DNA from: Dehalococcoidia bacterium
GTDB taxonomy: Bacteria; Chloroflexota; Dehalococcoidia; Lucifugimonadales; G963668185
NCBI GenBank assembly: GCA_965261935.1
Contig: OZ253485.1
Span: 1,304,388 to 1,368,387 of the forward strand
Direction of reading: 5' to 3'
DNA length: 64,000 bases
Position 1 is the stretch's first letter, and every line of letters starts with the position of its first letter. Position numbers and translations under genes: made by a program. The notes under the pieces are model-generated. The model did no database searches. It saw only the letters and a list, made by a program, of their open reading frames with translations, and was not told the DNA's origin. Below are positions 8,292 to 52,264 of this stretch, piece by piece.

Positions 8292-8710
8292 GTTCCCCTC
8301 CCAAGACTGCTGAATCGCCCGCAGTGTATGCCAGTCCCCCAATCACCGTCATCCACGAGGAATGGCTGAGGATTGATTGTTGTTCTTATCCGTTCGCCCT
8401 GGGTCGCTCCTGAGCTTGTCGAAGGGAGCCTCCTAGAGCCTGAGGAAGGGCCTTTGGAGGATCTTGCGAGTCGGGACAACTAACAAGGCCACATCCGGCT
8501 CGTCAGTTACATCTTTCGTTAGCGTTTACACTCACTTCCTTGGAATTTGCTCAAGCCCGGCATCATCGGCGTTTCTTCCAAGGTCAGCGATCAGTAGTTT
8601 GCACACATCCCTACTGAGTCAGCAAGGGGATACGACCTGCCGAAACCTGAGTGCGGTACGCCTCACCTATGGAGAGGTGCGAAAGGCTTGCAGCAAGACT
8701 TCCTCGGGCC

Positions 8711-9337
8711 TTAAGAGCTAGCTCCTGCGAGGTCATCTTGATGGATTTTGGCCTCTAGCGTTGCCAAATGGTGACTCCACGCAATAAGCCTAAGATGAAC
8801 TTTCTCAAGCGAGTCGTTTCCTTCTTCTCCCCATATGTCTGGACTTGCTATCCCTAATTCGCTCAATTTTCTTGTCAAGAATTCCATTTCAGTTGCAATC
8901 TCAGCAAACACATCACGAGCATTGAGTACTCGCATTGCAATGGTCAATTGCCCAAGCGTGCCAGCGTAAGGCCGAATCAGCCTTCGACATCGTTGAACAT
9001 GCGGTAAACACGCCTTAAACCGCCTGAAGTCTTCATCGGGCCGTGCTGATGTTGGCGGAACGACAGCTAGGGCCTCTTGAGTGTGACCGGATTGCAACCT
9101 CCGTTCAGCGATAACAACCACACGAGAGACAATTGCGCTCATTCGAGGCCACCACCACTCAGATGTGCCAAGAAGTATACTGCCAACTATTCCAACGGGG
9201 TAAATGAAGAGTGGAATCCTAATGTCTTCGACCCATGAATACCACGTAAGGGAATCGTCAATGAATCCTGGTAGACCGTGGGCAAACAACAGCACAGCGA
9301 TGACTGTTCCACTGATAGGTCTTGCCCATTTGCGCAT
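8711..9337 (-). CDS. Hypothetical membrane protein (2-3 N-terminal TM helices plus a helical C-terminal domain), in a compositionally atypical stretch
   Basis: 208-aa ORF with no family recognised. The surrounding roughly 1.1 kb is visibly more AT-rich than its flanks. Confidence 0.45.
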   Translation of the reverse strand: MRKWARPISGTVIAVLLFAHGLPGFIDDSLTWYSWVEDIRIPLFIYPVGIVGSILLGTSEWWWPRMSAIVSRVVVIAERRLQSGHTQEALAVVPPTSARPDEDFRRFKACLPHVQRCRRLIRPYAGTLGQLTIAMRVLNARDVFAEIATEMEFLTRKLSELGIASPDIWGEEGNDSLEKVHLRLIAWSHHLATLEAKIHQDDLAGASS

Positions 9338-9448
9338 TCACTCATGCTATAGCTCGTCTCTCAATTCCGTAAAGTCGACAACACACGAACCTTCCAATAG
9401 CAAAGACAACCGCTAGCATCGAACAATAGTCCCTCAGCCCCCTCCAGC

Positions 9449-9478
9449 TTGCCCGCCCAACTGGCGCCACCATAGAAT
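9449..9478 (+). promoter_or_regulatory. Candidate sigma-70 promoter TTGCCC-N18-TAGAAT upstream of 9518..10489
   Basis: Hexamers at 9449..9454 and 9473..9478, about 40 nt upstream of the ATG, which follows AAAGGAGG. Confidence 0.3.
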
Positions 9479-9517
9479 CGCCACATCCTCGGTGCAACTC
9501 GGACAAAGGAGGCCGAC

Positions 9518-10489
9518 ATGCCGACAAAGACGATCCGTGAAAGACTGGACTCTGGAGAGCTCCTCATCATGGACGGAGGCACCGGGTCTGAACTGCAGGC
9601 CCGCGGCGCCGATGTCCTGGTCGGCGCCACAGTGGACACCGGGCTGCAGGCATGGTCCGCTACCGCAAACGTCGAGCACGCCGACGTCGTCCAGCAAGTC
9701 CACCAGGACTACCTCCGCGTGGGCGCAGACATTCTCATAAGCAACAACTTCTGGACCAGCCCGTCACGCATGGAGCCCATCGGCCTGAAGGACGATTGGT
9801 CGAAGTACGCGCGCGCCTCAGTCGAGAATGCGATCAGGGCCCGTGACGCCCTCAAGCCTGAGGCCTACGTGACCGGCGGCATGGCGCCCCCCTGCCTCAC
9901 ATACTCCGAAGACGCGTCGGACGTCGTTCAGATGGGCGCCGCCGCTTTCCGTGACGAGTACTCCCAACACGCTAGATTGCTGGCCGACGCTGGCGTCGAC
10001 GCGCTGCTTCCGGAGTTCCTGGCAAGCATCGAAGAGTGCGTTGAGGCCGTCGATGCCTGCGCCGAGACCGGCCTGCCTGTCCTGCTCGGCGTGCGCAGCA
10101 TCCAGGAAGACGGCGGCTTGAAGTCCGGCGAGACCATGGGGGACTTGGTCTCCTCCCTTAAAGGCCGAGACATCGACGCCATTCTGCTGATGTGCTCCAG
10201 GCCGGAGAACATCACGGAGGGCCTGCGCAAGCTCCGCGATGCATACGACGGCCACATTGGCGGATACGCCAATATAGGCTACGGCGGAGTGGGAGTCCTC
10301 GGCGAAAACGCCCGGCAGCGCTACATGACCCTCACGAACTACGGCCCCGCCCGCGTCGCGGAGTTCGCCCGCGAGTGGAAGGAAATCGGCGCGCACGTCA
10401 TCGGTGGATGCTGCGGCACCGGTCCAGAGCACATCCTCATGATGAACCTGGTGCTCAAAGACCTGGAGCGCCCGGCGGCAATCGCATAG
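9518..10489 (+). CDS. Homocysteine S-methyltransferase family protein
   Basis: LIMDGGTGSELQARG at the N-terminus and GGCCGTGPEHI near the C-terminus (zinc-binding Cys pair). Confidence 0.8.
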   Translation: MPTKTIRERLDSGELLIMDGGTGSELQARGADVLVGATVDTGLQAWSATANVEHADVVQQVHQDYLRVGADILISNNFWTSPSRMEPIGLKDDWSKYARASVENAIRARDALKPEAYVTGGMAPPCLTYSEDASDVVQMGAAAFRDEYSQHARLLADAGVDALLPEFLASIEECVEAVDACAETGLPVLLGVRSIQEDGGLKSGETMGDLVSSLKGRDIDAILLMCSRPENITEGLRKLRDAYDGHIGGYANIGYGGVGVLGENARQRYMTLTNYGPARVAEFAREWKEIGAHVIGGCCGTGPEHILMMNLVLKDLERPAAIA

Positions 10490-14612: not shown

Positions 14613-16571
14613 ATGCCACCCGTTGCCGCAGTCGACATCATCTCAAGGGAATCCTATGCCGGCGGCGAGCCATTTGGCTCTTCCGGTCCGTTCGAGCGCA
14701 TAGACGGCACAGTCACGTTCACGGCTGACCCCGCCAGTCCCGCAAACGCGGCTATCACGGACATTGGTCTCGCCAGCCAAGACGAGGCCGGGCTGGTGCG
14801 GTTCAGTTCCGACTTCACCCTGATAACCCCGATTGGATCGGGTGGCGGCAAACTCCTTGTGGACGTGGTCAATCGTGGCAGGAAAATGGCGGTCAACACG
14901 TTTAACAGGGTCCCGCCCGGTCCGCCGTCGCGTGAACTGCCGCCCGGGGACGGATTCCTGTTTCGCCACGGCTTCTCGGTCCTGTCGATTGGCTGGCAGT
15001 GGGATGTCTATCGGGACGAGGCCCTGCTTGGACTGCAGGCGCCGCCGGTGCTGGCCGATGGCCGGCCTGTCACCGGACAGGCGGTCGTAGAAATCAGACC
15101 CAACTTCCCTATGCGCACGTCGCTGCTAGCCAACCGCTTGCACCAGCCCTATCCCCCGTCGGACCCCGACGGAGGCAATGCCCAGCTGCTCGTCCGCGAC
15201 TGGGAGGACGGCCCTGAGACCGAGATTCCCCGCAGCGAGTATCGTTTCGCTAGAGAGGAGAACGGAGAAGTCATACCGAGCAGGGTGCACGTTTTCCTCA
15301 ACACCGGATTCCAGCCGGGCAAAATCTACCGGATCGTTTACGACGCGGGAGGCTGCGTGCTGGTAGGCGCAGGACTGCTTTCCCTTCGAGAGGCCGCCGC
15401 CTGGCTTCGCCACCCATCCGCCTTGAACCCGGTGGCGGCGGGGTTCGAGCACGCATACGCATACGGAGTCTCTCAGACGGGCCGGATGCTCAGGCATTTC
15501 TTGTACCTCGGACTGAACTTGGACGAGTCGGGGCGCCCGGTCTACGATGGCCTCCTCCCACACGTAGCGGGAGGCCGCCGAGGAGAGTTCAATCATCGCT
15601 TCGCCCAGCCTTCACAGCAGTCTGAACCCGGTTTCGGCCACGCCTTCCCATTCACGGACGAGGAGACTTCGGACCCATACTCTTCACAGACGGACGGACT
15701 GCTATCACGTCAGAGAGCGTTGGGCTCCGTCCCCAAAGTCGTCTACACGAACTCCTCTGCCGAGTACTGGCGCGGCGACGGCTCCATGCAACACGTCGAA
15801 CCGAACGGCCTGAGCGACGCCGCTCAGGCGCCGGAGACCAGGTCCTACCACTTCTCCGGGACCCAGCACGGCGCTGGATCGCTGGACCGGGCGGCCGCCG
15901 GGCCTGACGGTAGCCTGGGTCGGCACCCCTTTAACGTGGTCGATTACAGGCCGCTGCTACGGGCCGCGCTGGTCAACCTTCACAGGTGGGCCGCCGACTC
16001 CGTTGAACCGCCACCAAGCAGGCACCCTCGCGTTGACGACGGCACCGCCGTAACCCAAGAGGAGGCTCTCGACGCCATGCCCGCAATTCCGGGTCTCGCC
16101 CTTCCGGACAAAGAGAGGCTTTGGGTCCTGCGCGAAGTGGACCTGGGACCGAAGGCGAAAGCAGGCGTCGGTCTGTACCCCGCGAAGGAGGGTGGCACAT
16201 ATCCCAGCTTGGTTTCCGCGCTGAACGCTGACGGCAACGAGACTGCCGGCATCCGGCTGCCGGACCTGGATGCGCCCGTCGGCACGCACACGGGCTGGAA
16301 TCCAAGGCACCGGGACACGGGCGCACCCGAACAGATCATCCCGATGCAGGGATTCACGCTTTTGTTCTCGCCATCAAAGAAAGACCGTGAGGCGGCCGGA
16401 GACCCGAGGCCTTCCTTGGAAGAGAGATACGGCTCGGGGGAAGACTACTTGAAACTAGTTCGCCGCCTCGCGAAGGCCTTGATCGACTCGAGATACGTGC
16501 TGCCGGAGGACCTCGACATCGTTGTGGCCGCCTGCGCCGCGCGCTACGACACCGCGGCGGGACACACTTAA
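14613..16571 (+). CDS. Large hypothetical protein, possibly alpha/beta-hydrolase-domain family
   Basis: 652-aa ORF starting 4 nt after the LLM stop. It has a nucleophile-elbow-like segment YAYGVSQTGRMLRHF. The family assignment is from memory only. Confidence 0.5.
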   Translation: MPPVAAVDIISRESYAGGEPFGSSGPFERIDGTVTFTADPASPANAAITDIGLASQDEAGLVRFSSDFTLITPIGSGGGKLLVDVVNRGRKMAVNTFNRVPPGPPSRELPPGDGFLFRHGFSVLSIGWQWDVYRDEALLGLQAPPVLADGRPVTGQAVVEIRPNFPMRTSLLANRLHQPYPPSDPDGGNAQLLVRDWEDGPETEIPRSEYRFAREENGEVIPSRVHVFLNTGFQPGKIYRIVYDAGGCVLVGAGLLSLREAAAWLRHPSALNPVAAGFEHAYAYGVSQTGRMLRHFLYLGLNLDESGRPVYDGLLPHVAGGRRGEFNHRFAQPSQQSEPGFGHAFPFTDEETSDPYSSQTDGLLSRQRALGSVPKVVYTNSSAEYWRGDGSMQHVEPNGLSDAAQAPETRSYHFSGTQHGAGSLDRAAAGPDGSLGRHPFNVVDYRPLLRAALVNLHRWAADSVEPPPSRHPRVDDGTAVTQEEALDAMPAIPGLALPDKERLWVLREVDLGPKAKAGVGLYPAKEGGTYPSLVSALNADGNETAGIRLPDLDAPVGTHTGWNPRHRDTGAPEQIIPMQGFTLLFSPSKKDREAAGDPRPSLEERYGSGEDYLKLVRRLAKALIDSRYVLPEDLDIVVAACAARYDTAAGHT

Positions 16572-16611
16572 GAGAAAGCCGGCCGACCTCAATAGTGAAG
16601 GACTGATCGCA

Positions 16612-17325
16612 ATGGACACATCAGATGTCGGGGCAGTGATCTTCGACGTTTTCGGCACGGTGGTCGACTGGCGGGGCAGCATCAGCGAGCAGTGCAGCGC
16701 GTTTGGGCGCGCAAAGGGAATCGATGTGGACTGGGATGTATTCGCCGATACGTGGCGTAGCAAGTACGGTCCCTACATGAACAAGGTACGAAACGGTGAC
16801 CTCCCCTGGACCAATCTGGACAGCCTGCACCGCATGTCGTTGGAAGAGGTACTGCACAAGTTCGGTATCTTCGGACTCAACGATGAAGAACTTCGCGAGA
16901 TTACGCTGTTTTGGCACCGCCTCAGGCCGTGGGCCGACTCCGTCCCCGGCCTGTACCGTCTGAAGAGCAAGTATGCAATAGCCACGATGTCAAACGGCAA
17001 CGTCGCCATGATGACAAACATGGCAAAGAGCTCGGGCCTGCCATGGGACTGCATCCTCGGCGCTGAGGTCGCGCGGCACTACAAGCCGGACCCGGAGAGC
17101 TACTTGACGACCGTCTCGCTGCTGGGGCTGAAACCCAGCCAGGTTGTCATGGCCGCCGCCCACACAGGCGATCTCATAGCCGCAGGAAAGCTGGGACTCA
17201 GGACCGCATTCATACCCCGGCCCATGGAACACGGACCGGGTCGAAGCCCCGAACCGGTATCCGACTTGCAGTTCGACGTCACGGCATCCGACTTCGTTGA
17301 CTTGGCGGCACAATTGGGGGCCTGA
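16612..17325 (+). CDS. Haloacid dehalogenase type II / HAD-superfamily hydrolase
   Basis: HAD motif I VIFDVFGTVVDW, then ATMSNGN and a C-terminal AAHTGDLIAA segment. Confidence 0.75.
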   Translation: MDTSDVGAVIFDVFGTVVDWRGSISEQCSAFGRAKGIDVDWDVFADTWRSKYGPYMNKVRNGDLPWTNLDSLHRMSLEEVLHKFGIFGLNDEELREITLFWHRLRPWADSVPGLYRLKSKYAIATMSNGNVAMMTNMAKSSGLPWDCILGAEVARHYKPDPESYLTTVSLLGLKPSQVVMAAAHTGDLIAAGKLGLRTAFIPRPMEHGPGRSPEPVSDLQFDVTASDFVDLAAQLGA

Positions 17326-17385
17326 CGTCTGCTCCTCTTACGCTTCCAGCTGAGGCTGCTCCGTGGTCGCGATTTAGCTGCCGCG

Positions 17386-18099
17386 TCACTCGGCCTCGAT
17401 CGCTGCCCTCTGGCGCTGCACCAGTTCGCCCACACCTTTCCACGCTAGGTCGAGCAACTCGTCCAGCGTCTGCCTGGAGAAGGGCTCCCCCTCCGCCGTG
17501 CCTTGCACTTCGACCACGCTGCCGTCGTCCGTCATAACAACGTTGACATCGGCTTCCGCGCGGGAGTCCTCTTCGTAGCACAGGTCCAGCAGCGGCACGC
17601 CATCGACAACGCCCACGCTCACCGCTGCAACTCCAGACCTAAAGGGCAGGCGCTCGATCTTGCCCGCCGAGACCATCGCGCTGGCCGCCTCGTGCAGCGC
17701 CACGTACGCGCCGGTGATCGCAGCCGTACGTGTGCCGCCGTCAGCTTGCAGCACGTCGCAGTCCACAGTGATCGTCCGCTCGCCCAAAGCCTCGAGGTCT
17801 ACGACTGCCCTCAGGCATCGGCCGATCAGGCGCTGTATTTCCCTCGCCCTTCCGCCCGCGTTCCGCTCCCTTGGCGTACGGGTCAACGTAGAGCGCGGCA
17901 GCATCGCGTACTCGGCCGTCACCCATCCTCGGCCCGACCCGCGCATCCACCGAGGAACCGTCTCCTCCACGGACACAGCGCAAAGCACACGAGTCTCGCC
18001 CGCCTCGATTGTGGCCGATCCCTCAGCATAGCTCTGTGCGGCCGTGCCGATCTTCACCGGTCGCAACTCGTCCGCTTCGCGACCGTCAACTCGTTTCAT
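17386..18099 (-). CDS. rph: Ribonuclease PH
   Basis: [17 protein letters not shown]...[19 protein letters not shown]...[23 protein letters not shown] is collinear with RNase PH. Confidence 0.9.
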
Positions 18100-38988: not shown

Positions 38989-39418
38989 GGCGGGGCTCCA
39001 TCCGGCCATCGTCCCGTCGGCCTGGGCTGGTCACTACGCTTCGTCTTCAGCACTGCCCTGGGCAGGTCCATGTTGCCGTCGAGGCGGCGTTGACTGGCCT
39101 CGGGACCTCGGCTGGAGGTTGAAATCAGCGCCGACTTACAGGCGCTCCCGCCCGCGCCTTCCTTAACGATGCGGGGCCTGACGCCGGGCCGCATGTCGCA
39201 CGGGGCCACGCCCCGAAAAGGACGCGAATTAGCACGCTAGTATTGGCCGAAACCTATCAATCATTCGGAACACAATCTCTAAGATACTCGCTTGCGGGGG
39301 CCTTCAAACCGCATGCTAGAATGCTTCCCAACCGGCGGCGAGACAACCCTTTCATTTCCTCTCCATGCCTATGGCATGGGACCTATGGGTCTTGTCCCCT
39401 CACTTTTGGATTTCATTC

Positions 39419-40774
39419 ATGGCAGGCAATCACGGAAATAGTCTGTGGCATTCTGTTCTCGGAAATCTGCAGCTCCAAGTGCCCCGCCCAAGTTTCGACA
39501 CGTGGCTCAAGGACACGGTCGGCTTACCGGGGGAAGACGGTTCGTTCGTTGTTTGCACACCCAGCCCGTTTGTTGCGGAGATGCTGGAGCGGCGGATGTA
39601 CTGTTTGATTTGCGACGCCTTGGAAAAGGTCACTGGCACGCGCCCCGAGATACTCTTCACCGTGGCTCACACGCCTAGCAACGGGCGCAACGAAGACCAT
39701 GGACAGCTCCCGCCGAGTGCTAACGGCACTGCCGATACTTCTCCCGGACAGCGGCAGGCACACTTGAACGGTAACTACACGTTCGGCACCTTCGTCGTCG
39801 GCAAGTCAAATGAACTTGCACATGCGGCATCCATGGCCGTCGCCACTGGGCCAGGCTGCACCTACAATCCGCTCGTCATTTACTCCGAGGTAGGCTTGGG
39901 CAAGACCCATCTCCTGCATGCGATTGGTCAGCGCATCGTCGACCAGGGCCAGAAGGTGGCTTACCGGACCACCGAGGAGTTCACGAACGAGTATATTGGG
40001 GCCATTCGTGATGGCAAGACGGATGCGTTTCGCGAGTTCTATCGTAGCGCGGACGCCCTCTTGCTCGACGACATTCAATTCATCATCGGCAAGGAGCAGA
40101 CCCAGGAGGGCTTCTTCCACACCTTTAACTCGCTCCAGATGGCCAACCGGCAGGTCGTCATTGCCAGCGACAGGCCTGTCGCTTCACTCACTCTCTTGCA
40201 AGACCGCATGAGGTCCCGGCTTTCCGGAGGGCTGGTCGTCGATATCCAACCACCGGACGTGGAGACCCGCCGCGCGATCCTTGAGGCCAAGGCGGACCGG
40301 TCCGCTGTTGACTTCCCAGAGGACGTCATCGACTACCTCAGTTCACACGACTACTCAAGCATCCGCGACCTCGATGGTCATCTCAACCGGATAACTGCGT
40401 TCACACAACTTCTAGGTGAGCCCGTAACACTTGACCTTGTAAAACGAGCGACCGTCGATATGTCTCCCGACAGTCGCCCGCCACCGGCCTCAGCGGAACA
40501 GGTAATCGAGCGTGTATGTAGTTACTTCAGCATGGAAGTGGACGCCCTACTTGGCCGTCGTCGCGACCGGGCTACCACGCTCGCACGGCAGGTCGCAATG
40601 TACCTCGTCAAGCAGGAGACCGGGCTGGGACTCACAGTAATTGGCAAGGTCATGGGAGGGAGAGATCACAGCACCGTGTCCTATGCTTGCTCGCAGATCG
40701 CGGCACGTCTCGGCCAAGACTCGTCATTGGAACGGCATGTTGTCAACATAAGGCGGTCGCTCACTCCGGCTTGA
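39419..40774 (+). CDS. dnaA: Chromosomal replication initiator protein DnaA
   Basis: LWHSVLGNLQ..., Walker A GLGKTHLLHA, DDIQF, and C-terminal DNA-binding domain GGRDHSTVSYA. Confidence 0.95.
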   Translation: MAGNHGNSLWHSVLGNLQLQVPRPSFDTWLKDTVGLPGEDGSFVVCTPSPFVAEMLERRMYCLICDALEKVTGTRPEILFTVAHTPSNGRNEDHGQLPPSANGTADTSPGQRQAHLNGNYTFGTFVVGKSNELAHAASMAVATGPGCTYNPLVIYSEVGLGKTHLLHAIGQRIVDQGQKVAYRTTEEFTNEYIGAIRDGKTDAFREFYRSADALLLDDIQFIIGKEQTQEGFFHTFNSLQMANRQVVIASDRPVASLTLLQDRMRSRLSGGLVVDIQPPDVETRRAILEAKADRSAVDFPEDVIDYLSSHDYSSIRDLDGHLNRITAFTQLLGEPVTLDLVKRATVDMSPDSRPPPASAEQVIERVCSYFSMEVDALLGRRRDRATTLARQVAMYLVKQETGLGLTVIGKVMGGRDHSTVSYACSQIAARLGQDSSLERHVVNIRRSLTPA

Positions 40775-43876: not shown

Positions 43877-45682
43877 GTGAAGTCCAGTGTCTTGACACCA
43901 GGACTGACGGTCGGACATGTCAGGGCGGGCTTAATGGCCGTGTCGGACCCCGCCTTCAAACTCACATTCGCATCGCTGCTGATTCTAGCGTCGCTAGGTG
44001 TCACGTACACGGACTCCCTCGGGAACTTTCCGCCGTTCGAACTCCGAAGCGTCTTGTTGCGCGGGATGGCTGTCAGCGGCATCCTGCTGCTCGGCGCTCT
44101 GGCGATTTCGCTCCGCTCTCGTACCGCATCGAACGGGGCGTTGGCCATCATTACGCTGGCCGGCATATTTACGGCATACATAGTCCACACCGAGCTGTTC
44201 TATTCAGGAAACGAGATTTGGATACTCAGTGCGTGTGCGGCGGCGGGTATCACGCTCTTCGTAGCATTCCGGCTCATAGATGAGCTTCGTTGGGGAGGGC
44301 TCGCCCTGTCGACAGTGGCGGTCGTGGTTGCTGTGGTGCTTGTATGGGCGGAGGCAGGATCGGAGATTGTGCGGGGGTTCAATACGCCTGGGGGCCTCTT
44401 CTACCTTAGCAGTACCACGATGTGGCTTGCCCTCATCGGATTGTGCTCCTTCGCAGGGGATTCATTTTACTTGATGTCTCGGATTGTCGACGCTTCCCGT
44501 TGGGGAAGCGTCGCCCTACTGGTTATCATGTTGACGGTTGTCTCCCTTTTCATCTTCCTGGGGCACAGGTTTGGTACTGGCGGGGACGACCTCCACGGAG
44601 ATGTGGAAGCTGTCAGCGGCCTATCCACCAGCGGCTGGGAAGACCATCCAAACGTCCGCTCCATCGTCTTCAGGGATACGCCGCAGGTGTACTTCGTCGG
44701 ATTCGATGCGATCACCCCTGAAGCAATCATGCAGAGATACATGGGAATCGAGACAACCGACTTCCACCAGGTGTTGGAAGCGGACATGCGCCGTATTCGG
44801 AACCTGTTTACTAACAGCGTTTCTACGAGGAACTCACTGAACACGCTCCTAGCGCTGGACTTGGACCTCTATCTGAATACCGGGGCAGAAGGTGATGATC
44901 GGCCCAACTACTTCGCAGGGCATGACCTAAGTCCACTGGTCTGGATTCTAAGGCAGAACGGGTACGAGACGACATCCATCTTTGAGAATGCGTACATGGG
45001 AAACCGAGGAGGTCCGGGCATTGACAACTACATAATCAATCAGTATGTCGCTCTGTGCTCACTGCTGGACCAAGACATACGACCGTGGGCGTTCTGGGGC
45101 TACTGCTGGAACCAAGAAGTAACAGATTTTCGCCCATCTCAGCTCCTCTCCCGGGACGAATTCTTCTTGACGGAGTTGACTAGTGTGGAGAGAACAGGCC
45201 CCCAATTCGTGATCGCGCATATCTGGATGCCTGGCCACACGCCCTCGAAGTTCGATTACTCAAATCAGGCCGAGAAAAAGGACTTTGTCACTCGTTACCG
45301 TGAGAGGTTCGATGCGGCTGCAATTATTCTGGAGCAGATCATTGATCACATCCGCGTCAACGACCCTGATGCCATCCTGTTCGTTTACGGCGACCACGGA
45401 GCTTGGCTGTCCAGCAGGATGAAAATCGAAGAAAACCCTGAGTTCTTCCTCCAGGACCGGTTCGGCATCCTCGGAGGCGTGTATCCGCCAGACCGTTGCG
45501 CCGCTGAGTTCGACGAGGCGGAGAGCAAGGGGTACGTGACCTCCCTGGACATCGTCCATGCGATACTAGAGTGCCTCTCCGGAGGGCAGAGCCCGCTCCG
45601 GGAGCCAAGAAATGATCGGTTCTGGGGTCCAGGAGTGCCCGAAGACCACTCCTACGATTACGAGGAGTTCCTCTATGAATAG
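43877..45682 (+). CDS. Membrane-anchored alkaline-phosphatase-superfamily protein (LtaS/EptA/sulfatase-like architecture), paralogue A
   Basis: About 250 aa of TM helices, then an extracytoplasmic domain with VYFVGFDAI, IWMPGHTP and VYGDHGAWLS (metal-ligand-like D / PGH / GDHG). Confidence 0.65.
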   Translation: MKSSVLTPGLTVGHVRAGLMAVSDPAFKLTFASLLILASLGVTYTDSLGNFPPFELRSVLLRGMAVSGILLLGALAISLRSRTASNGALAIITLAGIFTAYIVHTELFYSGNEIWILSACAAAGITLFVAFRLIDELRWGGLALSTVAVVVAVVLVWAEAGSEIVRGFNTPGGLFYLSSTTMWLALIGLCSFAGDSFYLMSRIVDASRWGSVALLVIMLTVVSLFIFLGHRFGTGGDDLHGDVEAVSGLSTSGWEDHPNVRSIVFRDTPQVYFVGFDAITPEAIMQRYMGIETTDFHQVLEADMRRIRNLFTNSVSTRNSLNTLLALDLDLYLNTGAEGDDRPNYFAGHDLSPLVWILRQNGYETTSIFENAYMGNRGGPGIDNYIINQYVALCSLLDQDIRPWAFWGYCWNQEVTDFRPSQLLSRDEFFLTELTSVERTGPQFVIAHIWMPGHTPSKFDYSNQAEKKDFVTRYRERFDAAAIILEQIIDHIRVNDPDAILFVYGDHGAWLSSRMKIEENPEFFLQDRFGILGGVYPPDRCAAEFDEAESKGYVTSLDIVHAILECLSGGQSPLREPRNDRFWGPGVPEDHSYDYEEFLYE

Positions 45683-45847: not shown

Positions 45848-47584
45848 GTGATGGATTGGCCGACCGTGCGCTTGAGGACGGGTCTTGAAGGAGCATCCGA
45901 ACCGGCCTTCAAACTCACGTTCTCGGCCCTGCTCATAACTGCTGCCCTGGGAGCCACGTATCTCAGTTCCGAGGATAACTTCCCAGGAATTGAGTTGAGA
46001 GATGTCCTCGCGCGCGGAATGGCCATCAGTCTGGTCCTGCTGCTCGGATCGCTAGCGTTATCACTGCGCTTGAAGACTCTGGCGAATGGTGCGTTGGCGC
46101 TGGTTACGCTTGCCGGTATATTCACAGCCTACATCGTCCACACTGAGCTGTTTTATCCCGGAAACAGGGCCTGGATGCTCGTTGTGTGCTTGGCCGCGCT
46201 GGTCACGCTTTTCGTGGCGTACCGCCTTATCGACCACCTTCGTTGGGGAGGGCTCGTCCTGTCAGCGGTGGCGTCGCTCCCTTTAGCTGCGCTTATCTGG
46301 TCGCAGGTCTGGCCAATGTTCACAGCGGGAATCGCCACACCCGGCGGCCTGCTCCAATTGGGGAGTCCCTTGATGTGGGTCGGCCTTCTTGGAATCTGCG
46401 CAGGCACGGTACTCGCACTGCATTTGATGTTCCGGGCTGCGGAAGCTCCACTGTGGGGAGCGTTTGCCCTGCTGGTTGTGACTGCGTTTCTCGTCTTCGC
46501 ACTGATCTGGCTAGATAGGAATCATGGCGAAGGCGGTACTGGCTACTACGCCGACGGCTGGGAAGACCACCCCGGCATTCACGCCTTAACATTCGACGAA
46601 ACGCCTAACGTGTACTTTGTCGTCTTCGACTCGATTGTCCCTGAGGCCATAGTGCAGAAGCAGATGGGAATCGAGACGACCGATTTCCACAGGGTGTTGG
46701 AAGTGAACATGCGCCGTCTCCCCAATCTGTTTGCCAACAGCATCACGACCATCTACTCACTGAATGCTCTCTTGGCTCTCGATTGGGACATATTTATGAA
46801 GCAATGGGAGGATACCGGTTCAAGACCTAGCTATGTCGCCGGGCATGATTTGAGTCCACTCGTGTGGACTTTCAGAGAGAATGGGTACCAAGCTACATCC
46901 ATCATCAACACGCCGCACTTTGGGCATCGCCAAGGAATGGGCATAGATAACTACATCATTAACAGGAGTGAGGCAATCTGCCTCTTGCTGGATGAGGATG
47001 TAAGGCCTTGGGCATTCTGGGGCTACTGCAGATATCGTGAAGCCGATCCAAAGCCAGGGGAACAAGTTCCATCAGGAGAATTTCTGGTACGCGAAATCGC
47101 TGGGATCAACAGGAGCAACCCCCAGTTTGTGATCGCGCATCTTTACTTGCCTGGCCATTACCAGAAGCAGCATGACAGAGAGACCTTCATAGAACAGTAT
47201 GAAAGAAACTTCAACAACGCGGCCGTCTTCCTCGAACGGATCATTAGACATCTCAGGATAAATGACCCTGAGGCGATACTATTCATTCTTGGTGATCACG
47301 GAGCCATGCTGTCCCAAGAGTTCAAGATTGAAGAAGACCCCACGTTCTTCCTCCAGGACCGGTTCGGCATCCTCGGAGGCGTGTATCCGCCGGACCGTTG
47401 CGCCGCTGAGTTCGACGAAGCAGAGAGCAAGGGTTACGTGACCTCCTTAGACATCGTGCATGCGATACTAGAGTGCCTGTCTGGTGGACAGAGCCCGCTC
47501 CGGGAGCCGAGGAATGACCGGTTCTGGGGTTCGGGAGTACCCGAAGACCACTCTTACGAGTACGAGGAGTTCCTCTATGAATAG
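45848..47584 (+). CDS. Membrane-anchored alkaline-phosphatase-superfamily protein, paralogue B
   Basis: Collinear with 43877..45682 (VYFVVFDSI, LYLPGHYQ, LGDHGAMLS). The last 79 residues are nearly identical to paralogue A. Confidence 0.65.
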   Translation: MMDWPTVRLRTGLEGASEPAFKLTFSALLITAALGATYLSSEDNFPGIELRDVLARGMAISLVLLLGSLALSLRLKTLANGALALVTLAGIFTAYIVHTELFYPGNRAWMLVVCLAALVTLFVAYRLIDHLRWGGLVLSAVASLPLAALIWSQVWPMFTAGIATPGGLLQLGSPLMWVGLLGICAGTVLALHLMFRAAEAPLWGAFALLVVTAFLVFALIWLDRNHGEGGTGYYADGWEDHPGIHALTFDETPNVYFVVFDSIVPEAIVQKQMGIETTDFHRVLEVNMRRLPNLFANSITTIYSLNALLALDWDIFMKQWEDTGSRPSYVAGHDLSPLVWTFRENGYQATSIINTPHFGHRQGMGIDNYIINRSEAICLLLDEDVRPWAFWGYCRYREADPKPGEQVPSGEFLVREIAGINRSNPQFVIAHLYLPGHYQKQHDRETFIEQYERNFNNAAVFLERIIRHLRINDPEAILFILGDHGAMLSQEFKIEEDPTFFLQDRFGILGGVYPPDRCAAEFDEAESKGYVTSLDIVHAILECLSGGQSPLREPRNDRFWGSGVPEDHSYEYEEFLYE

Positions 47585-47779: not shown

Positions 47780-49419
47780 TGTCGACGCTCAGCGATTATG
47801 TCCGCCTAAGTGCCAAGGGAAAATGTCCTCTGAGTAGATTGCCATGCTAGCTGATTACGGTACTTCCGACGTTGCGCGAGCGCGCCATGGGTGGGGTTTC
47901 GGCATTCATGTACTTCCTTGCAGTGTCCCGGTGGATGCCCACTTCCCGGGCGATCCCACGGATGGACAGGCCCTTGCGTTTCGCCTTCTGCACCGCCTTC
48001 CATCTCGCCGTCTGTAGTGGGGTGGGCTTTCTGGGTCGCGGAGTCACAGTCCTGCGAACTCTTGCGGCGCCGTTGCGGTCGGCATCGTCGCGGAGTCTGT
48101 CCGCTTCGAGCATTGTGCCCATTGACTCCACTTCGTCCTCCGGCCTCCTGATGACACCGTTGGTGTAGCGGCTGGGACCGGTCGTGTGTACGGTCCGCGT
48201 GCCGAAGCTGCGCAGGATACCTGGTCGCGGAGGCGCTTCCTGGGAGGCGACGATACGCCCTTCGTGTTGCACTGACAGCCGGCCGTCCAGTGCTTCGAGC
48301 ACTTCCACCGCCGACCCGGCAAAGCTCGGTCGAGCCTGATCGGGAAGCAACTGCAGGGTGCGCCAGCGGTACTTCACAGTGTTGTCCCGGCCAACCCGGC
48401 GCCTGTACTTCAGGCATAGGACTGTGTCCAGGCACGTCCCCGGATCCAGGACCCGATACGCGGTGTCTGCGTGTTGCGACGGCACACCAAAACGTTCATT
48501 GAAGCGGGGAAGGAAGTCGTTGAGCACGCGGTTGGCGTCATCGATGGTGGTCGAGCCTGCGAGCCTCAGCTCCGTGACCAACCTGTCCTGAAGTGTGCCC
48601 GCGGCGCGTTCCACTCGGCCTTTGGCTTGCGGCGACCGTGCGAATATCAGCTGTACGCCGATCTCACCCATCGCGCGAGAGAACTGGGTGGGGGCGGAGG
48701 CGGTCTCTGACGGCGGCGTGTGCTTGAAGACGCCATGGCGGTCTGAATAGAGTGCGAGAGGTATGCCGTAGCTCCGTATCAGAATCCGCATCAGCAGTAA
48801 GTAGCTGCGGGTGTTCTCCAACTCGCAGAACAGGGCGTTGACGACACAGCCGGTAGCGTCGTCGACCGCCAGCAGCAACGTGAACTGGGGGCCATCTTCT
48901 CCCAGCCATCTGTGGTAGCTGCCGTCGATCTGTATCAGCATCCCCTCGCGGGCCATCCGCTGCCGTCGAACACGATGCTTCGGCGGCCTTCGACGGCGGG
49001 GGCTGCTCACACCGGCGTCGGTCAGTATCTTGCGCAATGTGTTACGTCCGATGTCTATGCCCTCTCGCTCCCTCAGCAGTTCGCTCAAATGCGTGTGGTT
49101 GACTCCCGCGTATCGGGTCCGCGCCAGGACCACCACGTCGGTCGCCAACGGGTCCGGTGTAGCGTTGGCCGGTCTGCGACCTCGATTGCCGTGAGCGAGT
49201 GCGGCTGCGCCGTCCCTTCTGTAAGCCGCCAGAATACGCCTGGTGTGGCGCGCGCTCACTCCCATCAACGTGGCTGCCTGCTCCGTGGTCATATGGTCCG
49301 CCACCAAACTGTTGAGAACCTGAAGCCTCGTCTGCTCTTTCTGTGTCAATGTCACATGCTCCTTCATGCGGACATTTTCGCTTGACAGTTAGCGAGGACT
49401 TAATCGCTGAGCAACAACA
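47780..49419 (-). mobile_element. Insertion sequence (1640 bp) with about 49-bp imperfect terminal inverted repeats and a 7-bp target-site duplication CCGGGTA
   Basis: Left end is TGTCGACGCTCAGCGATTATGTCC...GAAAATGTCC (47780..47828). The reverse complement of 49370..49419 is TGTTGTTGCTCAGCGATTAAGTCC...GAAAATGTCC. Direct repeats CCGGGTA lie at 47773..47779 and 49420..49426. Confidence 0.85.
47847..49367 (-). CDS. DDE (integrase-core/rve) transposase with N-terminal HTH; family tentatively ISNCY/IS481-like
   Basis: LTQKEQTRLQVLNSLV..TTEQAATLMGVSARHTRRILAAYRRDGAAALAHGNRGRRP; DDE-type IQIDGSYHRW, LYSDRHGVF, AKGRVER. Confidence 0.8.
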   Translation of the reverse strand: MKEHVTLTQKEQTRLQVLNSLVADHMTTEQAATLMGVSARHTRRILAAYRRDGAAALAHGNRGRRPANATPDPLATDVVVLARTRYAGVNHTHLSELLREREGIDIGRNTLRKILTDAGVSSPRRRRPPKHRVRRQRMAREGMLIQIDGSYHRWLGEDGPQFTLLLAVDDATGCVVNALFCELENTRSYLLLMRILIRSYGIPLALYSDRHGVFKHTPPSETASAPTQFSRAMGEIGVQLIFARSPQAKGRVERAAGTLQDRLVTELRLAGSTTIDDANRVLNDFLPRFNERFGVPSQHADTAYRVLDPGTCLDTVLCLKYRRRVGRDNTVKYRWRTLQLLPDQARPSFAGSAVEVLEALDGRLSVQHEGRIVASQEAPPRPGILRSFGTRTVHTTGPSRYTNGVIRRPEDEVESMGTMLEADRLRDDADRNGAARVRRTVTPRPRKPTPLQTARWKAVQKAKRKGLSIRGIAREVGIHRDTARKYMNAETPPMARSRNVGSTVIS

Positions 49420-49426
49420 CCGGGTA

Positions 49427-49517
49427 CATGGCAAGATCGTACCTGGCCCGTCTCAAGTCAATGGTGTTCAGGGGCGGCGCGTCGGCACGGGAGCGCAAGA
49501 GCGGCGAAGGACACTAA
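49427..49517 (+). pseudogene. 3' part of the IS-disrupted small membrane protein gene
   Basis: After removing the IS and one TSD copy the frame continues ...AAGY-MARSYLARLKSMVFRGGASARERKSGEGH-TAA. The stop lies 15 nt before the methyltransferase ATG. Confidence 0.55.
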
Positions 49518-49531
49518 CGGCGGCGACGCAT

Positions 49532-50965
49532 ATGTTGAGAGCGGACGGCGGGTCATTCAGGGATCCGTCAGGTCGTGTGTACCTGTTTGAAGATGAGGCT
49601 GGCGGGCGTCGCGTGGTCCGCGGCTTGTCAGCCGCCACAGCGTCGACGGTCGACCGACTGTTGCGCGAGCCGTTCTTCAAGCAACTCGTGGCGGGTGGCG
49701 ACGTCGTTGAGACACACCTCCTTCGTACAGAGGATCCCGTACTCGACGCCGTAACTAACGAGGGCTGGTCGGCAGCAGTCGAGCACGAGGCCGTGGACTT
49801 CCCAACGTGGCCCTATGAATGGCCCTTCTCCATGCTCCAGGATGCCGCTCTCCTGCAACTGGACTTGCTGGTCGCGGCCGTTGGCAACGGATGGACACTC
49901 AAGGACGCCACCCCGTACAACATCCAATGGTCAGGTATGCGGCCGGTGTTCATAGACATTCCCTCCTTCGTTCCACGCGACGATGGCGAGTACTGGCAGG
50001 GCTATCGGCAGTTCTGTTCGATGTTTCTCACCCCGCTCATGCTGACGGCCCATCTTGGGATCCCGTTTCATCCTCTGCTGCGCTCCTGTTTGGAAGGCAT
50101 TCCGCCGGAAGAAGCCGCAAAGTACTTCCACGGGCTGCGCCGGCTAAAGCGAGGTGTGCCGTCGCATATCTGGTTTCCGGCGATCGTTGAGAAGCGAATG
50201 CAGCGTCGGTCCGGACCAGGATCCTCTCCACGGTCCAAGCGCAGACAGTCCGAGACGGCGCTTTTGGCCCTCCTAGACGACCTCAAACGGCTGGTGGGCG
50301 GCCTGAAGCTTCGTACTAGAGGAACTTCGGACTGGGCCCGGTACTCCGATACACATTCGTACCAGGACGATGATTTCGGCAGGAAGATCGCATTCGTCGA
50401 AAAGCACACGTCGGCGCGCCGTCCGCGGCTCTTGTGGGATCTGGGCGCGAACACCGGGGCATTCTCCGGCGTTGCGGCAAGGCACTCAGCGACAGTAGTC
50501 GCGGTGGACAGCGATCACCATGCTGTGGACATTCTTTACCATGAGGCCCGAAACAGAGGCGAAGAGAACATCATTCCGCTGGTGATGGACTTGGCCAACA
50601 TGTCGCCCGGCCAGGGCTGGGCGGGGCGGGAACGCGCCGCGTTCGAAGCCAGGCGGAGCCCCGACATGGTGCTTTGTCTTGCTCTGATACACCACCTCCG
50701 CGTCTCAGCAAACATTCCGATTGCGTTGTTCGTAGAGTGGCTGCGCAGCTTGGACGCCCCCGCCATCATTGAGTTCGTCAGCCGGGATGACGAAATGTTC
50801 GTCAAGCTCGTGCAACACAAGAGCGAGGACTACCCCGACTACACGTTCGAGCACTTCCAGTCGGCTGTCGGAAAGCACTTCACGGTTGAAGACAGGATTG
50901 CGCTCAAGGGAGGAAAGCGTGAGTTGCTCCTAATTCAGCCTAGGAGTTCGACGTGTATAGGGTAG
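49532..50965 (+). CDS. Class I SAM-dependent methyltransferase with a large N-terminal extension
   Basis: N-terminus SFRDPSGRVY...; SAM-binding motif LLWDLGANTGAFSGVAA...VVAVDSD; LALIHHL. The upstream part of ORF 49343 runs through the IS end and is rejected. Confidence 0.7.
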   Translation: MLRADGGSFRDPSGRVYLFEDEAGGRRVVRGLSAATASTVDRLLREPFFKQLVAGGDVVETHLLRTEDPVLDAVTNEGWSAAVEHEAVDFPTWPYEWPFSMLQDAALLQLDLLVAAVGNGWTLKDATPYNIQWSGMRPVFIDIPSFVPRDDGEYWQGYRQFCSMFLTPLMLTAHLGIPFHPLLRSCLEGIPPEEAAKYFHGLRRLKRGVPSHIWFPAIVEKRMQRRSGPGSSPRSKRRQSETALLALLDDLKRLVGGLKLRTRGTSDWARYSDTHSYQDDDFGRKIAFVEKHTSARRPRLLWDLGANTGAFSGVAARHSATVVAVDSDHHAVDILYHEARNRGEENIIPLVMDLANMSPGQGWAGRERAAFEARRSPDMVLCLALIHHLRVSANIPIALFVEWLRSLDAPAIIEFVSRDDEMFVKLVQHKSEDYPDYTFEHFQSAVGKHFTVEDRIALKGGKRELLLIQPRSSTCIG

Positions 50966-51085
50966 CCTGGCAGACTTGGGCCTTGGCTCATATGTCGCCG
51001 GCCTGTCGCGAAACCCTTGATGCCTTCGCTGTCTCGCTCATACGATGAGCGCAATGACGGACCACGAAAGAGGGCAGGGGCCTTA

Positions 51086-51451
51086 ATGAAAGAAGCCGAC
51101 TTCTACTGGTATCGCAAATGAAGCGCCTGTAGAGAACTAAGAGCGTTGCTCTTGGAAGGCGGTGTCCGGCTGAACGAGCGCGAATATTTTCGCGATCACT
51201 TCACCGAGAACGAACTGCGTCAAACACTCGCCGGTCGGCACGCCTCCGAGATCTTCTCCCGGCGCAGTCCCAGCTTCCGAAAACTCGGGCTCGACTTCGA
51301 GTCGCTCTCGGGCGATGATCTGATACGACTGATGGTCGAAGAGCCTCGCCTCATCAAACGCCCCCTAGTACGATGGGGTGAGAGCCTCATAGCGGGAAGC
51401 GGAAAAGCTGAACGTGGCGCGATCCAGGCGGCACTGAGAGACGCAGACTGA
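51086..51451 (+). CDS. ArsC/Spx/YffB-family thiol-type reductase; candidate selenoprotein (UGA at 51119..51121 giving a U-S-A-C motif)
   Basis: ATG 51086 (after AGAGGGCAGGGG), then MKEADFYWYRK-TGA-SACRELRALLLEGGV..., in frame with ORF 51146..51451. LIKRPLV motif present. A hairpin lies downstream of the TGA. Confidence 0.6.
51137..51155 (+). promoter_or_regulatory. SECIS-like stem-loop downstream of the in-frame UGA
   Basis: CUAAGAGC-GUU-GCUCUUGG: 8 bp including one G-U pair. The apical loop begins 23 nt after the UGA and has G in its first position. Confidence 0.45.
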
Positions 51452-51478
51452 ATCGAAGTTAAACAGCGGAGGGCCAGC

Positions 51479-52234
51479 ATGGCGACCACCGAAAAGACTC
51501 TATGGACAGACGAGCAGGTGAGGCAGGAAGTACGAGAGCACTATGGCGCCTTGGCCCGCCGATCGACCGCCTGCTGCGAAGACGCAGAGGCGGAGGTCGC
51601 CGGGTCCCTGTACGACCAGCGTCAGACCGAAGGCCTGCCGGCCGAGGCCCTGCAGGCCGCCGCGGGATGCGGTAACCCCACGGCGTTGGGGTCCTTGCGG
51701 CCGGGCGAAACCGTCGTAGACTTCGGCAGTGGCGGCGGAATCGACTGCTTCATGGCGTCGCGCGCCGTCGGTCCCACCGGTCGGGTGATCGGCATAGACA
51801 TGACCCAGGACATGATCGACCTCGCCCGCAGCAATGCACAGAAGCTTGGCGTCCGCAACACCGAGTTTCACCTCGCTGTTATGGAAAACACCCCCTTGGA
51901 GAGTTCCACAGTAGACGTGATCATCTCCAACTGCGTCATCTGCCTCGCTCCGGACAAAGACGCCGTCTTCCGGGAGGCCTACCGCATTCTGAAGCCCGGC
52001 GGCAGGCTGTATGTATCGGATATGGTGTTGGCCCAGCCACTCCCGTCAGACTTCGCGCCCAGCTCCGAGAGTTGGGTGTCTTGCGCCGGAGGCGCCGAGG
52101 ACAGGACCGTCTATCAGAAGCGGCTTGCCAACGCTGGTTTCGAAAGGCTCGACGCCATATCCGAAGTCCCCTACGAGGACGACGACATACCGAATCTCTA
52201 CAGCTACAGCTACGTGGCCTACAAGCCGGAGTAG
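51479..52234 (+). CDS. arsM: Arsenite S-adenosylmethionine methyltransferase
   Basis: HYGALA...ACCE, AAGCGNPTA, VVDFGSGGGID, ISNCVICLAPDK: the conserved Cys set and SAM motif of ArsM. Confidence 0.8.
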   Translation: MATTEKTLWTDEQVRQEVREHYGALARRSTACCEDAEAEVAGSLYDQRQTEGLPAEALQAAAGCGNPTALGSLRPGETVVDFGSGGGIDCFMASRAVGPTGRVIGIDMTQDMIDLARSNAQKLGVRNTEFHLAVMENTPLESSTVDVIISNCVICLAPDKDAVFREAYRILKPGGRLYVSDMVLAQPLPSDFAPSSESWVSCAGGAEDRTVYQKRLANAGFERLDAISEVPYEDDDIPNLYSYSYVAYKPE

Positions 52235-52264
52235 CGCGCGAGGCGGATCGCGAGGCGGATCGGG

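Follow-up and report, generated by a model that had tools for sequence, protein, structure and literature searches.

Here we describe a gene at positions 51086..51451 (+) of a 64,000-nt stretch of DNA from a Dehalococcoidia bacterium (contig OZ253485.1; the whole stretch is referred to below as the window) that very probably encodes an intact selenoprotein of the ArsC/Spx/YffB fold, in which a selenocysteine insertion sequence (SECIS) would direct selenocysteine (Sec) to an in-frame TGA within a UxxC redox motif. The reading is carried by the conservation of the TGA among relatives, by coding conservation on both sides of it, by homologues that pair Cys with the Sec position, by a selected hairpin just downstream and by the fold of the product. 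The gene is a genuine addition to a known family of predicted selenoproteins, for which a role in arsenate reduction has weak support. It represents no new class of system: the family was listed in 2008, and no kind of bacterial selenoprotein is commoner than one with a Sec/Cys swap in the CxxC of a thioredoxin fold. Its main value lies in annotation, together with a selenium-arsenic link that is open to testing in Dehalococcoidia.

The in-frame TGA and the reading frame around it

Mechanical calling of open reading frames (ORFs) places at this locus a truncated ORF of 101 aa, 51146..51451 (+), with a TTG start. The initial annotation took this ORF for an ArsC/Spx/YffB-fold protein, and both the ORF and its Pfam ArsC match are indeed present. 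Continuing upstream in the same frame leads to ATG 51086, from which the frame runs through MKEADFYWYRK, the TGA at 51119..51121 (+) and SACRELRALLLEGGVRL before ending at TGA 51449-51451; the start codon, the eleven sense codons and the internal TGA all lie where they had been proposed, behind a purine-rich stretch at 51066..51080 (+) (GAAAGAGGG at 51066-51074, GGGG at 51077-51080) that may serve as a Shine-Dalgarno sequence. Read through, the frame gives 121 residues including Sec12, the first residue of U-S-A-C, with the TGT codon at 51128..51130 (+) supplying Cys15 as the putative resolving partner in the UxxC. With Cys put at the TGA, the readthrough product matches PF03960 (ArsC) at 59 bits (E = 5.8e-16; gathering cutoff 24 bits) over residues 7-104. 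Because this match begins at profile position 1 with residue 7, the 11 codons upstream of the TGA are part of the domain.

Public databases contain the family almost entirely in shortened form, as had been suspected of automated callers. A search covering 5.8 billion proteins recovered 58 homologues, all but one of which (57) are 69-104 aa long and miss the N-terminus; the sole full-length homologue, P0029 (115 aa), carries YWWKSCSQCRDTRAAL aligned to the window's YWYRK*SACRELRALL. We therefore turned to nucleotide sequence and fetched 80 related genomic loci from Dehalococcoidia, SAR202, other Chloroflexota and Smithella/Syntrophales, which together with the window make a family of 81 sequences. 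The tblastn matches in the 80 loci begin at query residues 1-6, and in-frame translation meets a stop at the same column in every locus, always TGA (81/81 with the window). The surrounding residues are strongly conserved, both before the TGA (Y at -5 in 75/81, W at -3 in 74/81, R/K at -1 in 73/81) and after it (S/T at +1 in 78/81, C at +3 in 81/81, R/K at +4 in 80/81), and in most of the 80 loci the TGA is preceded by an ATG at a distance of 10-13 codons. Furthermore, the 33 nt upstream of the TGA are conserved as coding in all 80 loci, and none of them holds a homologue that genuinely starts at the position of TTG 51146.

The same column is occupied by Cys in other relatives. A profile search run exhaustively over 1.84 billion cluster representatives gave 1,531 relatives at E <= 1e-3; roughly 33 of the best 150 are full-length CxxC forms aligned on the UxxC, and the remainder of those 150 are mostly N-truncated calls. 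P0029 and these representatives (about 33) thus align their CxxC on the TGA column, the arrangement looked for in a Sec/Cys pair, and the family also shows the general mark of a selenoprotein gene, an in-frame TGA kept among orthologues with coding conserved on either side. In one database protein among the best 150, P0069 (179 aa), the Sec column is occupied by W (FWNRWSSCRKAR), suggesting translation of its contig under a UGA=Trp code. The systematic truncation of this clade of small redox proteins (57/58 close homologues, most of the best 150 representatives) is itself of practical importance: a dedicated family model would mend many annotations in Dehalococcoidia, SAR202 and Smithella.

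A hairpin downstream of the TGA

A short stem-loop, CUAAGAGC-GUU-GCUCUUGG, lies inside the coding sequence at 51137..51155 (+) and is the centroid structure of the fold. Its apical loop (51145-51147) begins with G and is placed 23 nt past the UGA, within the range for bacterial SECIS elements, in agreement with the initial annotation. Published criteria for such elements ask for an apical loop of 3-9 nt, an upper stem of 4-16 bp, a G in the first two loop positions, a distance of 16-37 nt from the UGA and a minimum free energy <= -7.5 kcal/mol (PMC13188914). The hairpin falls within these limits on all four counts, with a 3-nt loop (GUU), an 8-bp stem, a spacing of 23 nt and an energy of -8.6 to -9.7 kcal/mol.

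The 54 nt from the TGA onward align without gaps over all 81 sequences, and in this alignment columns 19-26 pair with columns 30-37 to form the hairpin. Across all sequences, 89.7% of stem cells are paired, whereas shifting the 3' partners by 1-3 columns brings this down to 33-54%, and compensatory double changes occur in five of the eight stem pairs. The G25-C31 pair never varies, nor does the first loop position, G27; the second, U28, is kept in above 90% of sequences. A subclade of 12 loci (among them L022, L035, L037, L039, L044, L049, L051, L052, L062, L066 and L068) has instead a stem, GUGAGAGC-GUG-GCUCCAC, that pairs only with one A bulged; since these loci are scored as unpaired in the fixed register, the pair counts understate the conservation of the hairpin. 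Pairing was also found between columns 10-14 and 42-46, as in a lower SECIS stem, in 69% of cells; this candidate is largely unpaired in the window itself, and we do not claim it.

Because the hairpin region is also coding, we compared it with synonymous recodings and with a Cys-form gene. When synonymous codons were resampled by the window's own codon usage, only 0.05% (0.0005) of recodings of the window sequence were as stable as the real hairpin, and the corresponding fraction is at or below 0.05 in 79/81 family members. The Cys-form gene of P0029 (locus L085), which has TGC at the column, reaches -1.8 kcal/mol over the same 19 nt versus a family mean of -7.6, and the hairpin is absent from it. 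Covariation, the recoding control and the loss of the structure in the Cys form all argue for a bacterial-type SECIS.

On this evidence, a ribosome arriving at the UGA at 51119-51121 would encounter a SECIS whose loop, starting G-U, recruits SelB with Sec-tRNA(Sec), such that selenocysteine would be put in where translation would otherwise terminate. The expected product is a thioredoxin-like protein of 121 residues with Sec12 and Cys15 at the N-terminus of helix alpha-1. These two residues would cycle between the selenol/thiol and selenenylsulfide states, making the protein a small redox-active (seleno)thiol oxidoreductase.

Fold, function and the downstream arsM gene

The relation of the product to ArsC, Spx and YffB was assessed by profile, sequence and structure. 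Among NCBIfam models, TIGR01617 (Spx/MgsR, 'arsC_related') scores highest, with 62.2 bits, but the cutoff of 75.05 is not reached; TIGR00014, the model for glutaredoxin-type ArsC (R773), gives 41 bits against a cutoff of 106.05. By sequence, Spx comes closest among solved structures (E about 1e-11), and the Sec column falls on Cys10 of the Spx C10xxC13; R773 ArsC is not among the PDB sequence matches at E <= 0.01. Modelled with AlphaFold2 (pLDDT 90.7), the Cys homologue P0029 has its CxxC at the N-terminus of helix alpha-1 (residues 14-25) and superposes on ArsC-like, Spx and YffB structures with TM scores of 0.73-0.88, with Foldseek favouring none of the three. In keeping with the proposal of the initial annotation, the Pfam match, the alignments and this model agree on a UxxC protein of the ArsC/Spx/YffB fold, whose TGA sits on the first, catalytic Cys column. 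It is safest described as a redox-active UxxC member of this fold, and not as an arsenate reductase or an Spx of the canonical kind.

R773 ArsC acts through its catalytic Cys12 and an oxyanion triad of Arg60, Arg94 and Arg107, and these residues bear directly on whether the protein could be a genuine R773-type, glutaredoxin-coupled ArsC with Sec in place of Cys12, whose As(III) product would be methylated by a co-transcribed ArsM. In an alignment of the family with E. coli ArsC, E. coli YffB and Spx, the Sec column is the Cys12 column and the R94 equivalent is invariant, both of which favour such an enzyme, as do the ArsC fold (TM 0.81-0.83 to E. coli R773/chromosomal ArsC and YffB) and the naming of some relatives by JGI as 'arsenate reductase-like glutaredoxin family protein'. 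However, the position of R107 is taken by Ser, Thr or Ala in the Sec forms, the counterpart of R60 is ambiguous (an R/K displaced by one or two columns), and the redox motif reads UxxC, not CxxS as in E. coli ArsC, so that the window protein has a second Cys without counterpart there; identity to E. coli ArsC is about 20%. Together with the low TIGR00014 score and the missing PDB match noted above, these differences leave a true arsenate reductase unlikely. The genomic context bears on it from both sides: an arsM gene close by in the window, L001-L003, L018 and L055 favours it, and the surroundings elsewhere in the family count against it.

The gene next downstream is arsM, as first annotated: 51479..52234 (+) scores 273.7 bits with NF008823 (arsenite methyltransferase; cutoff 263), matches Pfam Methyltransf_31 (E = 2e-33) and encodes an all-Cys form. 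It starts 27 nt past the ArsC-like gene on the same strand, with GGAGGG before its ATG, and no terminator-like site was found between the two genes, which are probably co-transcribed judging from this arrangement. Directly downstream arsM is found only in the window and in L001-L003, its three closest relatives (71-78% identity). Several observations weigh against an arsenic-related function beyond these. At a distance of 3-4 kb, arsM recurs in L018 and L055, bringing the total to 5/80 loci with arsM within 10 kb and leaving 75/80 without it nearby. In L006, L024, L028, L042, L071 and L075, an orf185-coaD-rsmD block follows the ArsC-like gene directly, with no arsM; since these six more distant loci carry the same downstream genes, arsM appears to be a derived insertion in the window's sub-lineage. 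A query with E. coli ArsB gave no match near any locus and one with ArsR a single ArsR-like gene (Acr3 was not searched). Clustering of all ORFs within +/-4 kb in the 80 loci returned no neighbour conserved family-wide, and no ars genes occur in the neighbourhoods of Cys forms, which are otherwise uninformative. The proposed module of arsenate reduction plus arsenite methylation is thus a modestly supported hypothesis confined to this lineage: the methyltransferase and its adjacency hold in the window and L001-L003, but the arsenate-reductase half has weak support (TIGR00014 at 41 bits, no R107), and within this group arsM appears to have been inserted into an older context without it. In the window, the apparent insertion (51452-52264) separates the ArsC-like gene from the convergent orf185-coaD-rsmD block.

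A regulatory function is less probable still. Spx owes its redox switch to the CxxC at residues 10-13, and requires Gly52 to bind the alpha C-terminal domain of RNA polymerase; an Spx-like regulator of this kind, with a selenenylsulfide in place of the disulfide, would account for TIGR01617 being the best NCBIfam match, for Spx leading the PDB sequence matches with U on Cys10, and for UxxC spacing identical to that of the Spx switch. Compared with Bacillus subtilis Spx (PDB 1Z3E, 3GFK, 7F75), which is closest by sequence, aligns its CxxC on the UxxC and has the fold in common, the window protein nevertheless falls short of the TIGR01617 cutoff, has a gap in place of the two-residue D51-G52 segment and does not have the longer C-terminal tail, besides carrying Sec for Cys10. 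The structural comparison, too, shows no preference for Spx over ArsC-like or YffB structures. To our knowledge, Spx regulators have been characterised in Firmicutes and not in Chloroflexota or Desulfobacterota, the phyla at issue here. We consider it highly unlikely that the family acts in this way.

Returning to a selenoprotein oxidoreductase, the insertion of arsM 27 nt downstream and its probable co-transcription make redox service to arsenic methylation the likeliest local role in the arsM-bearing sub-lineage. Such service could consist of the reduction of As(V) or of pentavalent methylarsenicals, or of the re-reduction of an active-site disulfide in ArsM. We put an arsM-related role forward tentatively, as a reasonable inference for this lineage and not as the general function of the family. 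Were the pairing functional, arsenic methylation would be tied to selenium availability in a lineage abundant in the ocean and the subsurface. A more specific scenario, which we regard as doubtful, has a distinct, overwhelmingly Sec-using clade, widespread in Smithella and in Dehalococcoidia/SAR202 of the sea and the subsurface, recruited in one sub-lineage as the dedicated selenol redox partner of ArsM; if true, arsenic methylation in these organisms would be selenium-dependent.

Decoding of the UGA, earlier predictions and wider context

Some results count against Sec insertion at this TGA. The 62-nt region taken as a whole is no better folded than shuffled sequences (z = -0.45), and Rfam has no match that reaches its gathering score, with nothing but noise around the SECIS at E <= 10, although absence of an Rfam match is expected for bacterial SECIS elements. 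ARAGORN found neither tRNA-Sec nor tmRNA in the 64-kb window or in the 80 loci (1.5 Mb), and no tRNA genes at all in the window. No SelA, SelB or SelD is present among the 20 window ORFs scanned with Pfam, which are housekeeping genes (pheS, dnaA, obg, coaD, rsmD, prmC and others), and E. coli SelA, SelB and SelD, used as tblastn queries on the window and the loci, which like all these flanks are small samples of each genome, gave one match only, in L007. That match (16500-17528, -) is an AIR-synthase-fold ORF that shares 28% identity with E. coli SelD across 286 residues; we rejected it as SelD because it does not have the G[CU]GCK active-site motif. It lies about 7 kb from the ArsC-like gene.

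These negatives, together with the short form given by mechanical ORF calling and by nearly all database entries, are what can be said for the view that no selenoprotein exists here, the product starting at TTG 51146, or the 11-codon ORF being a separate leader peptide, or the locus being a decaying pseudogene. We judge this extremely improbable. The stop is TGA in 81/81 sequences from two phyla, never TAA or TAG; the conserved flanks of the TGA together form beta-1 and the start of alpha-1; Cys homologues read through the same column; and the hairpin is selected beyond coding needs, none of which would be expected of a leader peptide or a pseudogene. Decoding of the UGA by other means, whether near-cognate readthrough as Trp or Cys or a UGA reassigned in the lineage, has the W of P0069 in its favour but is about equally remote, given that the gene itself ends at TGA 51449-51451, so that UGA still terminates translation in the lineage, that the downstream hairpin fits the SelB-type SECIS model, that full-length homologues have Cys rather than Trp at the column, and that Dehalococcoidia are documented as selenoprotein-rich, with metagenome-assembled genomes holding 49 and 46 selenoproteins in BSepDB (PMC13326102). 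The selenoprotein described here adds to this picture.

Selenoproteins resembling ArsC have been predicted before, including from marine metagenomes, as the initial annotation noted. Those from the Sargasso Sea are of the UxxS type (PMC1088965), others come from Desulfotalea and Desulfuromonas (PMC1794560), and the Global Ocean Sampling (GOS) survey lists 'Arsenate reductase 2, cd03032, UxxC' with 42 sequences (Zhang & Gladyshev, PLoS Genet 2008, PMC2398784). One GOS read, JCVI_READ_1318105 (MIYYTWNKUSTCKK...RSPSVKKIGLD...EPRLIRRPLVV), aligns with the window protein over 100 residues without a gap (39% identity, E = 2e-28), its U falling on the U of the latter; it has the UxxC at the same position and the hallmark motifs ERD.F, RSPS.KK.GLD and EPRLIRRPL in common with the window protein. 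This match means that the exact family was already recorded as a predicted selenoprotein in 2008, and the GOS assignment to cd03032 (ArsC_Spx) agrees with TIGR01617 as the window's best NCBIfam match. The GOS group is heterogeneous, with other members (MVKKVDWYYMRGGUTTC...) that have no real similarity to the window protein, and its entries are single reads without genomic context, whereas the present gene can be located, neighbours included, on Dehalococcoidia chromosomes.

A 2026 review equates the GOS group with NCBIfam NF041106 (ArsC_rel_Se_1, 'ArsC family (seleno)protein'), which appears as 'Arsenate reductase-like protein, UxxC' in PMC13188914. Like the window family, NF041106 combines an ArsC fold and a UxxC in a predicted selenoprotein with Cys homologues. 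The window protein, however, scores only 13.3 bits with it (E = 0.096; cutoff 85 bits) and a Smithella member 34 bits; by sequence, the window family is a clade apart from NF041106 and is captured by no curated selenoprotein model, as NF041106 is the only curated one for ArsC-type UxxC selenoproteins. The 'Arsenate reductase 1' group (UxxS, COG1393/TIGR00014; PMC1088965) likewise has the ArsC fold and Sec on the catalytic Cys12 column, but differs in its YHNP[RH]UG.SR motif with UxxS, as in true ArsC, where the window family has UxxC and a weak TIGR00014 match.

A second candidate selenoprotein gene, which lends the Sec reading some indirect support, was seen near some members of the family. 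In 12 loci (L010, L011, L013, L016, L019, L021, L023, L025, L026, L032, L036 and L038), a DUF3179 gene on the opposite strand, some 900 bp upstream of the ArsC-like gene, has its own conserved in-frame TGA, ...EPISLAW[U]TLCNSGIVY... (UxxC). In L010 it spans 8362-9975 (-), with the TGA at 9120, and encodes about 530 aa (PF11376, E = 7e-75). ORF lists split this gene into two, DUF3179 is mentioned in two selenoprotein reviews, and the window has no copy; a scan of the window for other in-frame-TGA redox motifs gave none that was convincing. Elsewhere in the family, mutS stands directly upstream of the ArsC-like gene in 16 loci, for which reason P0145 (545 aa), a MutS C-terminus fused to the C-terminal part of an ArsC-like protein, is probably a mis-call.

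Upstream of the selenoprotein gene in the window, a 540-aa ORF (49343..50965, +) shows weak class-I methyltransferase signals (Pfam E about 4e-3) and no NCBIfam match; it is syntenic in L001-L003, and its listed GTG start overlaps a transposase gene. The latter, an ISNCY-family gene at 47847-49367 (-) just upstream of the cluster (NF033594, 400 bits; cutoff 250), has no tblastn match in any of the 80 related loci, including L001-L003, and its insertion is therefore probably recent. Two adjacent ORFs, 43877-45682 (+) of 601 aa and 45848-47584 (+) of 578 aa, match no Pfam (E <= 1e-6) or NCBIfam (E <= 1e-5) model. Further upstream, dnaA (39365-40774, +) lies 10 kb from the selenoprotein gene, with obg, a nadD-like gene, pheS, coaD, rsmD and prmC nearby, from which we take the window to be chromosomal and probably near the replication origin.

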